DNA from: an uncultured Gammaproteobacteria bacterium
Lineage (GTDB): Bacteria > Patescibacteriota > Patescibacteriia > UBA2591 > UBA6264
NCBI GenBank assembly: GCA_964507075.1
Contig: CAZDOL010000010.1
Location: forward strand, 1-8,584
Length of the DNA: 8,584 nt
Direction of reading: 5' to 3'
Shown here: one piece after another, positions 1,608-2,352 of the stretch
Layout: every line of letters starts with the position of its first letter
How positions within the stretch are numbered: position 1 is the stretch's first letter
Made by a program: the position numbers and the translations under genes
Notes under the pieces: model-generated
The model's database searches: none
The model's input: only the letters and a program-made list of their open reading frames with translations
What the model was told of the DNA's origin: nothing

Positions 1608-2352
1608 CAGTTTTGTTACTCTCCTAATTTTAGGAGGGATTAGTCATTTCTGCTAATCTCTTCGGCTCTCACCGAAGCTCGGACTATATCTTCCGAATAC
1701 ATAATGTTTTATGTATCTCGGTCTAGCGTATAGTCTCTGAGGATGACAAAAATTTGGCTGGCTTTTTTCGATTCATTGTTTCAATGATTCTCGCAATTCT
1801 TTCACAACCTTGTTGACTTAAATGTTTTCCTGAACGCATTATTCTTACAATTTTTGCGAATTTCCTGAAGTCATTGATTTTCGCTGTTTTTAATTGATTC
1901 TGCCGAAAAAATGGAATAATTTTATTTTCTAAATCATCCAATTTTCTCACACAGTATCGGTATAAATCTTCTCTGTGATTACCATACTTACGATTGATAT
2001 AAACCTTTCCACATTGGAAAAATTTTTCTAATTTCTTTAATACCTTTACACTCTTAGCTCCCTGAGCAACAATAAATTCTGGAAATATTTGCCAACCGGA
2101 ACTGGTAGTAGGATTTCTAAAGATGCTTACGGAAAAACATCCTTCACCATCAATGAAACCTACGATCCAACCGATTAATTTTTGCCTTTCCTGCTGATTA
2201 TCTGCAACAAATGTTTTTTTACTGTACATATAATTACCTCTATCATTAATTATCTATGGGGTAACTATACCATAGTAACATTTGTTTTGCAACTATTAAA
2301 AGTACAGACGTTCCAGCATATAGCTAGATTTTACTAAGGCAAGAAAAATCCA
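1608..2352 (-). mobile_element. Group I intron at 23S site L1931 (between U1931 and A1932, E. coli numbering), 745 nt, carrying a LAGLIDADG ORF
   Basis: Removal restores CCGTCCTAAGGT|AACGAAATTCCTTGTCG (E. coli CCTAAGGTAGCGAAATTCCTTGTCG), with U at 2353 and omega-G at 1608. The internal guide GCCTTAG (2334-2340) is complementary to exon CTAAGGT, including the terminal U.G wobble (P1). Core elements are P CTATATGCTGGAA (2311-2324), Q AATCAGCAGG (2190-2199), R TCAGAGACTATACG (1727-1740) and S GATATAGTCC (1681-1690). A P8-like hairpin lies between R and S. Confidence 0.9.
1723..2229 (-). CDS. LAGLIDADG homing endonuclease, single-motif (homodimeric I-CreI/I-CpaI-like, LAGLIDADG_1), intron-encoded
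   Basis: This 168-aa ORF has one LAGLIDADG motif, LIGWIVGFIDGEGCFSV. Its size and downstream pattern (IIPFF..., KHLSQQG, MNRKK) are typical of single-motif family members. An SD-like AGAGGT lies 7 nt upstream of the ATG. The TAG stop falls inside the ribozyme R element. Confidence 0.9.
   Translation of the reverse strand: MYSKKTFVADNQQERQKLIGWIVGFIDGEGCFSVSIFRNPTTSSGWQIFPEFIVAQGAKSVKVLKKLEKFFQCGKVYINRKYGNHREDLYRYCVRKLDDLENKIIPFFRQNQLKTAKINDFRKFAKIVRIMRSGKHLSQQGCERIARIIETMNRKKPAKFLSSSETIR

Follow-up and report, generated by a model that had tools for sequence, protein, structure and literature searches.

A LAGLIDADG endonuclease reading frame overlapping the ribozyme core of an L1931 group I intron in a Patescibacteria-type 23S rRNA gene

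The minus strand of the window, the whole 8,584-nt stretch of DNA analysed here, carries a 745-nt group I intron (2352-1608) that interrupts a Patescibacteria-type 23S rRNA gene directly behind U1931; all features described below lie on the same strand. The exon flanks, CCUAAGGU and AACGAAAUUCC, can be read directly from the sequence. The 5' splice site follows exon nucleotide U2353, which forms a wobble with G2340 in P1 (2359-2334), where the exon sequence CUAAGGU (2359-2353) pairs with the guide GCCUUAG (2340-2334), a pairing also present in the aligned relatives. The intron terminates in the omega-G, G1608, which is followed by exon AACGAAAUUCC, and the Rfam LSU match restarts just past it at 1607. 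An exon of 14 nt (2366-2353; E. coli 1918-1931) lies between this intron and the L1917 intron. Upon alignment of the 3' exon to the E. coli rrl gene, CCUAAGGU ends at position 1930 of the 2903-nt copy, which equates to 1931 in the standard numbering and places the intron in the L1931 class. The standard numbering is anchored on the helix 69 pseudouridine positions 1911, 1915 and 1917. The core helices P3-P8 are backed by covariation, and the L1931 intron is predicted to be a mobile, self-splicing group I intron.

At its gathering score the Rfam model RF00028 called the two sister introns in the window and missed the L1931 intron, which falls below the threshold because the ORF splits its core at P6. 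With permissive filters the model covers the 3' half of the intron only, scoring 30.3 bits where the threshold is 50, and places the R side at 1740-1722. As Rfam aligned this half alone, the Q element was located through homology to an ORF-less intron, together with RNAalifold. The ORF-less homologue (L074), whose Q and R are almost identical to those of the window, scores 77.1 bits with RF00028, with both elements aligned. P4 and P7 are situated where the initial annotation of this DNA had put them.

The intron encodes a single-motif LAGLIDADG homing endonuclease of 168 aa (2229-1723). Its ATG is located at 2229-2227 and the SD-like AGAGGT, previously pointed out beside the start, occurs 6 nt before it (2241-2236). 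The protein contains one copy of Pfam PF00961 (LAGLIDADG_1; residues 22-128, E = 3.2e-23), and 2462 homologues were detected. Its PDB relatives align across residues 14-156 only, and those enzymes with a double motif align twice onto its single domain. The GFIDGEG motif is present, and the acidic residues D27 and E29 are invariant among 47 sequences.

The body of the ORF sits in the P6a loop. With 5' and 3' denoting the strand of each helix, its first 53 nt serve in turn as P5c 3', P5b 3', the A-rich bulge, P5a 3', P5 3', P4 3' (Q), P6 5' and P6a 5', and its last 32 nt serve as P6a 3', P6 3', J6/7, P7 5' (R) and P3 3'. Read off the minus strand, GAT AAT CAG CAG GAA AGG (2202-2185) codes for D10-R15 (D-N-Q-Q-E-R) and TCA GAG ACT ATA CGC TAG (1740-1723) for S164-R168 (S-E-T-I-R) and the stop codon, as the initial annotation had proposed. 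Its further statement that Q and R are non-coding in both sister introns also holds, these elements being located outside any minus-strand ORF of at least 60 aa, as does the placement of the ORF in an expanded P6 (P6a) loop, extending 5' through the P4 3' strand into P5 and 3' through P7. The dual use of bases is likewise upheld, but its extent was underestimated, with ~85 nt being shared rather than ~30 nt. The additional parts comprise the P5a and P5b 3' strands, the A-rich bulge, both P6a strands and the P3 3' strand with the stop codon.

Codons S3-K5 contain the P5b 3' strand AGUA (2223-2220) and the A-rich bulge (2219-2215), together corresponding to RNAalifold columns 109-117. They are followed by the P5a 3' strand ACAUUUGU (2214-2207; codons T6-V8), recovered by RNAalifold and in the MFE fold, where the P5a 5' strand AACAAAUGU (2286-2278) forms a perfect 9-bp helix with 2214-2206. 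The P5 3' strand UGCAGAU (2206-2200; codons V8-D10), identified by covariation and RNAalifold, pairs with the 5' strand GUCUGUA (2309-2303). The centre of Q is the P4 3' strand UCAGCA (2197-2192; codons N11-Q13), the 5' strand of this helix being UGCUGG (2318-2313; RNAalifold columns 11-16). Codons Q13-R15 (2191-2186) include the P6 5' strand GG (2191-2190) and the internal loop AAAG (2189-2186), while codons R15-L18, where the LAGLIDADG helix begins, contain the P6a 5' strand GCAAAAAUU (2185-2177), which pairs with the 3' strand AAUUUUUGU in codons K159-S162 (1754-1746). The register of P6a in the window is shifted by one base compared to that of the family. The R element (1742-1729; Rfam alignment and P7 covariation) consists of the P6 3' strand CC (1742-1741), J6/7 UCA, GA and the P7 5' strand GACUAUA (1735-1729), and corresponds to codons S163-I167. 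The P3 3' strand GCUAGA (1727-1722), which pairs with UCUAGC (2328-2323), holds the UAG stop codon (1725-1723). The P8 hairpin (1721-1693; Rfam alignment) and the P7 3' strand UAUAGUC (S element, 1688-1682; Rfam and covariation) complete the 3' part, the latter downstream of the ORF.

Approximately 80 related loci, out of 573 confirmed in a genome scan, were examined. Covariation was counted in 71 non-redundant sequences, with shuffle controls that ignore shared ancestry. Six loci with wrong anchors or anchors on another intron (L026, L046, L054, L056, L065 and L078) were excluded, the P4 anchor is absent in L009, and the L1917-site paralogues L048 and L051-L053 were kept in the counts. Many double changes were observed in P3, P5, P6a and P7, with 10-33 in five of the six P3 pairs, 9 and 21 in the P5 pairs a+10 and a+12, and 8-22 per pair in P6a in the family register. 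RNAalifold recovered P4, P5, P5a and P5b, with 11-19 compensatory sequences per pair in the family P5a helix. P4 and P6 are invariant in the 71 sequences, save for one compensatory change in P4. This change, in L003 (UGCGGG/CCCGCA), results in the substitution Q12P, and the P7 variants CACUA/UAGUG and GGCCAUA/UAUGGUC similarly alter residues 165-166.

When codon positions were compared across the overlaps, the synonymous sites of Q12, Q13 and E14 (CAG CAG GAA) and of S163 and S164 (TCC TCA) proved invariant, with a single codon used in 36-37 of the 37 non-redundant relatives. For conserved residues between the overlaps other than Met and Trp (G, D, E, F, P, R, L and others), codon entropy is close to its maximum, and this combination of conserved residues and free synonymous change points to purifying selection on the endonuclease family. 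The Q and R strings recur in ORF-less introns, including the L1917 intron of the window itself. Stop codons occupy 17 offsets, the extremes being -9 and +117 nt relative to R, and a higher GC content goes with a larger offset (rho = 0.40, p = 0.003); in about eight loci the ORF ends 8-9 nt before R. The frozen synonymous sites, the covariation, the RNA-driven residue changes and the labile stops together argue that RNA constraint dictates the sequence of the protein tails. The alignment of R by Rfam, the Q and R of the ORF-less homologue and the invariant synonymous sites in the overlap codons argue that the overlap is not due to chance. The simultaneous RNA and coding constraint envisaged in the initial annotation is hence borne out by the frozen codons, covariation, RNAalifold and the alignment of the ORF-less homologue.

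The peptides ADNQQER and SSETIR are nearly invariant among proteins that are ~60% identical overall, as would be expected if a role of theirs in DNA contact or dimerisation were under selection in the protein and the overlap with Q and R were secondary. The AF2 model, in which residues 10-17 form a helical extension of the LAGLIDADG helix so that a single helix spans residues 10-29, is in keeping with this explanation, and for this reason the Q, P6 and P6a codons may matter to the protein too. Protein selection would not, however, freeze third codon positions, and it is at odds with the presence of the same nucleotides in ORF-less introns, the alteration of the residues by compensatory RNA changes, the loci in which the ORF stops short of R, and the predicted disorder of residues 164-168, which, like residues 1-9, have pLDDT values below 50. 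As the primary cause of the conservation, it is improbable.

The overlap is very probably the result of the endonuclease gene having "crept" into the ribozyme, with the RNA setting the sequence of the overlap and the protein accepting the resulting residues. The folded part of the enzyme would be encoded in the P6a loop and the reading frame would begin in the peripheral P5b/P5c loop, crossing the 3' strands of P5b, P5a, P5 and P4, and then P6 and P6a, to reach the LAGLIDADG helix. Past the domain, it would cross the 3' strands of P6a and P6, J6/7 and P7, and find its stop codon by chance in the P3 3' strand, ADNQQER and SSETIR thereby representing translations of Q and R. The 5' extension occurs family-wide and may have originated through the recruitment of an upstream start. 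Because P4-P6, P7 and P3 would be opened as the ribosome passes, splicing and translation would exclude each other on one RNA. The excised intron, or else a distinct internal transcript, would most likely serve as the template for translation, and the folded precursor would presumably hold initiation back.

Overlap of the ORF and ribozyme has already been described for the same intron family, under the term "core creep". In Haugen 2007 (PMC1995217), the ORFs of cyanobacterial L1917 and L1931 introns extend into the core, leading from a peripheral loop across P7, P3 and P8, and the double constraint is noted. The Synechococcus L1931 introns treated there share with the window intron the insertion site, the kind of enzyme, the lack of P2 and a complex P5, and Synechococcus sp. 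C9 has L1917 and L1931 introns together, as in the window; the window host, in contrast, is a Patescibacteria-type genome. Table 1 of the same source lists, for the same site in Thermotoga spp. and Simkania negevensis, introns of 654-700 nt that carry single-motif LAGLIDADG genes measuring 143-162 aa. LAGLIDADG_1 insertions at 23S position 1931 have been catalogued in CPR bacteria (Tsurumaki et al. 2024, PMC11270868), and the window intron, which agrees with these in clade, site and Pfam family, is an instance of that class.

The core-creep model and its predictions, namely variable start and stop positions, a GC-dependent stop and dispensable terminal residues, were formulated by Edgell, Chalamcharla and Belfort 2011 (PMC3073962). 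In the L1931 introns the start and stop positions vary among the homologues and the stop depends on GC, while the terminal residues may be dispensable, as the ORFs that end before R and the tails with pLDDT below 50 would suggest; residues 10-17, however, are predicted to be helical. Whereas core creep is a model, the L1931 introns make up a very large family, in which the 5' extension is a fixed trait and does not differ between cases. The understanding of group I introns or homing endonucleases is unchanged by the L1931 overlap, which provides a clean, quantified natural case in which the same bases serve a protein gene and a ribozyme, and the ~80 loci together with the 2462 protein homologues confirm the published predictions of labile starts and stops, a GC-dependent stop and RNA-dictated terminal residues.

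Since mis-called ends can yield extensive overlaps (Edgell 2011, PMC3073962), the annotated start might be wrong and translation might begin downstream of Q, in which case the 5' overlap would not exist. Between Q and the LAGLIDADG helix, however, ATG, GTG and TTG are all absent in frame, so the start upstream of Q given in the initial annotation survives, and AGAGGT precedes this ATG by 6 nt. Furthermore, an in-frame start is present at least 9 nt upstream of Q in 71/71 non-redundant members (modal distance 30 nt; mostly -9 to -63 nt from Q), and the distance between the A-rich bulge, whose motif AGUAAAAA is kept in 61 loci, and Q is 24, 39, 42, 45 or 48 nt, a multiple of three in 61/61 loci. 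A downstream start is thus very improbable. Equally slight is the chance that the ORF is a decaying remnant, with an overlap of no present function for either partner. L029 does carry an internal stop, and the spacing from Q to R is not a multiple of three in L041, L055, L062 and L066, but the window ORF is intact and retains GFIDGEG, a copy with 98% identity exists elsewhere and the codon pattern of the family reflects purifying selection on the protein. Least credible of all is a direct gating of the start codon by the ribozyme fold through the pairing of CUGUAC (2307-2302) with GUACAG (2227-2222), as suggested in the initial annotation, given that, although these six bases are complementary, CUGUA is part of the P5 5' strand and covaries with 2206-2200, the pairing would compete with P5 and together with P5a would make a pseudoknot, it is unused in the MFE fold, and GUACAG is limited to the closest relatives (MYSKK...), with others carrying AUGCCAAGU. 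The position of CTGTAC is one base removed from that first given for it (~2303-2308).

The associated idea that translation is coupled to ribozyme folding persists as the hypothesis of a structure-gated start, since a different, predicted hairpin overlaps the SD in part and takes in the first two bases (A and U) of the AUG. In the MFE folds, 2270-2260 pairs with 2238-2228, and this hairpin, together with a -10-like TGGTATAGT (2272-2264), AGAGGT and the A and U of the start codon, makes up a putative L5b/P5c start module (2274-2228), which 17 ORF-less introns belonging to this class lack. The stability of the window hairpin does not exceed that of shuffled sequence (z = -1.06). Start codons with at least 2 nt paired occur in 53/62 family members versus a background of 0.70, and the proximal 8 bp of the hairpin are conserved without covariation, while the covariation of the distal part is weak (anchor-based). 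A promoter scan lists TTGCAA-17-TATAGT at 2292-2264; on its own it provides no evidence for a promoter, because the six sites found between 1500 and 2800 are at chance level (4.0 +/- 2.4 expected). The motif TGnTAnnnT occurs in 35/71 ORF-bearing P5 regions versus 0/17 ORF-less ones.

A similar arrangement is known from the td intron of phage T4, where the I-TevI ORF occupies the P6 loop and contributes P6a/P7 nucleotides through its 3' end. There, a hairpin over the ribosome-binding site limits translation, and a promoter whose transcript escapes the hairpin relieves the block. I-TevI differs in being a GIY-YIG enzyme, in having a protein-coding host gene and in a 3' overlap of only 20 nt, and the T4 promoter and hairpin have been demonstrated experimentally, whereas those of the window are hinted at by the sequence. 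It is possible, if doubtful, that the P5b/P5c module is a T4-type expression switch combining an SD/AUG hairpin with an internal promoter. In such a switch, the pre-rRNA would hold the SD and AUG in the hairpin, whose 5' arm would carry an extended -10 (TGGTATAAT in low-GC hosts, TGGTATAGT in the window), and a transcript begun ~7 nt downstream, without the 5' arm and the 5' half of the ribozyme, would be freely translated. If true, this would explain how the endonuclease is expressed inside an untranslated rRNA without disturbing splicing. In a term search of Tsurumaki et al. 2024 (PMC11270868), start codons and promoters are unmentioned and "overlap" appears twice, both times in a methodological sense. 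The start module in the P5 extension bears on how endonuclease genes inside bacterial rRNA get expressed and offers a testable lead. In actinobacterial hosts, the module instead carries TAGGGT or TATGGT, which precedes the ATG or GTG by 5-7 nt, a spacing that corresponds to the geometry of a putative leaderless mRNA.

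The ORF (2229-1723) of the L1931 intron (intron B; minus strand, 2352-1608, inserted after U1931 as read from the exon flanks) codes for a single-motif LAGLIDADG_1 protein and is threaded through the core of its own ribozyme. The first 53 nt of the ORF (2229-2177) and its last 32 nt (1754-1723) both fall within ribozyme strands, and dual use therefore extends over ~85 nt, rather than the ~30 nt estimated in the initial annotation. On the minus strand, the A and U of the AUG (2229-2227) lie in a putative P5c stem, followed by the 3' strand of P5b (2223-2220), an A-rich bulge (2219-2215), the 3' strands of P5a (2214-2207) and P5 (2206-2200), J5/4, the P4 3' strand (2197-2192), the P6 5' strand (2191-2190), an AAAG internal loop and the P6a 5' strand (2185-2177). 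[quoted passage not shown] As had been proposed, the Q overlap reads GAT AAT CAG CAG GAA AGG (2202-2185; D10-R15) and the R overlap TCA GAG ACT ATA CGC TAG (1740-1723; S164-R168 and stop), and the Q and R strings recur in the L1917 intron of the window, a sister without an ORF, and in 17 introns of this class that also lack one. The threading of the ORF through the core is thus confirmed, and its earlier interpretation holds in its central claim but errs in one detail.

The possibility that R lies outside the ORF is contradicted by covariance-model alignment with Rfam under permissive filters, in which the 3' half of the intron aligns with R (UCAGAGACUAUACGCUAGA) at 1740-1722, followed by P8, GAAGAUAUAGUC and P9. 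The 5' half is left unaligned by the same search because ~440 nt of ORF occupy P6, and was placed by three independent routes, namely ORF-less homologues, RNAalifold and anchor-based pair counts. Two related loci carry ORF-less L1931 introns with Rfam scores of 67-77 bits, and one of these introns reads, in full, GCAGA(C)AAUCAGCAGGAAAG, a short hairpin and then AAUCCUCAGAGAC, which correspond to the P5 3' strand, J5/4, P4 3' strand, P6, P6a, P6 3' strand, J6/7 and P7; the window is almost identical at these core strands. RNAalifold on 32 related 5' halves recovered P4, P5, P5a and P5b, with both sides changed in 11-19 sequences per pair of P5a. Across 71 non-redundant loci, double changes number 10-33 in five of the six P3 pairs, 9 and 21 at two pairs of P5, up to 19 in P7 and 8-22 per pair in P6a, which closes off the ORF loop as a long-range helix. 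While the shuffle controls for these counts ignore shared ancestry, the helices are secure from the number of distinct pair types.

Within the overlaps, codon usage is frozen. Among the 37 non-redundant members that share the common Q-R spacing of 459 nt, Q12 Q13 E14 are encoded by CAG CAG GAA and S163 S164 by TCC TCA (36-37/37 for each), while conserved residues other than Met and Trp between the overlaps (G24, D27, G28, E29, G30, P50, F107, K117, N153 and others) draw on every synonymous codon available to them, with near-maximal entropy. Three loci encoding relatives of the intron B protein, L003, L023 and L060, fall outside the motif filter, yet are informative rather than exceptions. In L003 (1407-1544), P4 UGCGGG/CCCGCA replaces UGCUGG/UCAGCA, a compensatory change through which the otherwise invariant Q12 becomes P (ADNPQER in its protein, P0080), and L023 and L060 carry compensated P7 variants which alter residues 165-166. 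The P7 of actinobacterial copies is GGCCAUA/UAUGGUC, and in P6a, the Leu-161 codon, ~440 nt away, varies in step with changes at residues 16-17 (LK, PE, QK). Given the frozen codons, the compensatory changes and the presence of Q and R in ORF-less introns, it is therefore the RNA that holds the nucleotides in the overlaps, and the residues follow.

Both ends of the ORF were compared among relatives. A start codon downstream of Q, which would have removed the 5' overlap, finds no candidate in the window, where no in-frame ATG, GTG or TTG occurs between Q and the LAGLIDADG helix. An in-frame start lies upstream of Q in 71/71 relatives, the nearest at 9 nt and the commonest, as in the window, at 30 nt. 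Between the A-rich bulge and Q lie 24, 39, 42, 45 or 48 nt, a spacing divisible by three in 61/61 loci, which speaks for translation of the frame 5' of Q. Ten loci (L010, L016, L017, L027, L031-L033, L036, L040 and L042) have an extra 15-24-nt hairpin between the P5a and P5 3' strands, in the N-terminal coding region, which in every case adds a multiple of three nt. Stop codons occupy 17 offsets, from 9 nt before to 117 nt after R, in P3, P8, P7 (AAG AUA UAG) or P9, and the offset increases with the GC content of the copy (rho = 0.40, p = 0.003, uncorrected for phylogeny). Broken relatives occur in L029 (internal stop) and in L041, L055, L062 and L066, where the Q-R spacing is not a multiple of three. 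In these spacing-shifted loci, and likewise in L044, L059, L061 and L074, the ORF stops 8-9 nt short of R, and the 3' overlap is therefore not universal. The anatomy of the overlap, the dominance of RNA constraint and the lability of the ORF ends are shown by these comparisons.

The intron B protein has 2462 detectable homologues, and relatives were confirmed in 573 stretches by genome scan, the best 80 of which were analysed using peptide patterns for selection that exclude Q and R. Although overall identity among these proteins is only ~60%, ADNQQER and SSET(I/K/T)R hardly vary. Solved double-motif relatives (I-SmaMI, I-OnuI etc.) cover only residues 14-156 in alignment, and in an AlphaFold model (47 sequences) pLDDT is below 50 at residues 1-9 and 164-168, while one helix spans residues 10-29. 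On this model, the extreme tails of the protein look dispensable, and residues encoded at Q/P6/P6a may cap the LAGLIDADG helix at its N-terminus. The best 80 of the 573 stretches carry MAG labels of Patescibacteria, Actinomycetota, Acidobacteria, Gammaproteobacteria, Planctomycetota, Bipolaricaulia, Thermodesulfobacteriota and Kiritimatiellia, along with one Nanoarchaeota contig, which suggests wide horizontal spread or else binning noise.

The host gene is a bacterial 23S rRNA gene on the minus strand (Rfam LSU, 1376 bits) with three interruptions, in a small source genome (613 kb, 30 contigs); the closest named relatives of the intron protein originate from Patescibacteria/CPR assemblies. 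Insertion-site numbering was checked on a 2903-nt copy of the E. coli rrl gene, in which CCUAAGGU ends at 1930, equivalent to 1931 in standard numbering when anchored on the helix 69 residues 1911, 1915 and 1917. Read likewise from exon flanks on the minus strand, intron A (L1917; 2691-2367) lies after U1917 and intron C (337-1291) in domain V, the latter with a LAGLIDADG_2 ORF downstream of the core, entirely 3' of the Rfam-matched part, in contrast to the threaded ORF of the L1931 intron. Introns A and B are separated by 14 nt of rRNA (2366-2353; E. coli 1918-1931), seven of which form part of the P1 of the downstream L1931 intron, and this micro-exon is therefore common to both splicing reactions, as in Synechococcus sp. 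C9. Introns L1917, L1931 and L2593 have been described in Synechococcus, with ORFs that reach from a peripheral loop across P7, P3 and P8 and are thereby doubly constrained (Haugen et al. 2007, PMC1995217), and LAGLIDADG_1-encoding insertions at 1931 of CPR 23S genes have been catalogued (Tsurumaki et al. 2024, PMC11270868). ORF/ribozyme overlap has been drawn as a standard variant (Hausner et al. 2014), and "core creep" was proposed with a Synechococcus lividus LSU example of 81-nt overlap (Edgell et al. 2011, PMC3073962). This model predicts variable ends, GC dependence and dispensable tails; the first two are seen in the family studied here, whose tails also look dispensable. Three refinements to this known arrangement possibly go beyond the cited descriptions: a 5' overlap long enough to take in P4 and all of the 3' side of P5abc, the pairing of codons 15-18 with 159-162 to form P6a, and the quantitative codon test.

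A ribosome on the ORF would have to unwind P5abc, P4, P6, P7 and P3, so that translation and catalysis would be mutually exclusive per molecule, and the enzyme would presumably be made from excised intron RNA or a separate transcript. The ATG and the SD-like AGAGGT (2241-2236) are as initially annotated, and CTGTAC is present, at 2307-2302, one base from the approximate position first given. Its suggested pairing with GTACAG beside the start fails, as CUGUA belongs to P5, GUACAG is confined to the nearest relatives of the window and the MFE fold lacks the pairing. In that fold, 2270-2260 instead pairs with 2238-2228, taking in GG of the SD and the first two bases of the AUG. At least two of the three start-codon bases are paired in 53/62 family MFE folds, against a background of 0.70; the hairpin shows weak covariation, and in the window it is no better than shuffled sequence (z = -1.06). 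In many low-GC members TGGTATAAT makes up its 5' arm, replaced by TGGTATAGT in the window, where TTGCAA lies 17 nt upstream of TGGTATAGT; the TGGTATAAT-type element is followed by four variable bases and CCATAG. This P5b/P5c loop module is absent from ORF-less introns, with TGnTAnnnT found in 35/71 ORF-bearing P5 regions and 0/17 ORF-less introns of the same class. The TGGTATAAT/TGGTATAGT element resembles an extended -10 and, together with TTGCAA, occupies 2264-2292 (minus) in the window; it also lies 5' of the start codon in L004, L010, L013 and others. Matches in a promoter scan were at chance level. The module resembles that of T4 I-TevI, in which a hairpin covers the ribosome-binding site and a promoter yields a transcript that cannot form it, although an equivalent arrangement in the window is a tentative and rather doubtful reading of the sequence. 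High-GC, mostly actinobacterial versions have TAGGGT, TATGGT or TAGGAT 5-7 nt before the ATG/GTG and ~42 nt upstream of Q (L034, L045, L048, L050-L053, L058, L063, L068, L075 and L076), a gap that would be expected for a leaderless mRNA. At ~1185 in L050, a short ORF-less P6 accompanies a start-module remnant in P5 (TAGGGT, 6 nt, ATG AGC AGT GAC), as if the endonuclease body had been lost and the start module retained.
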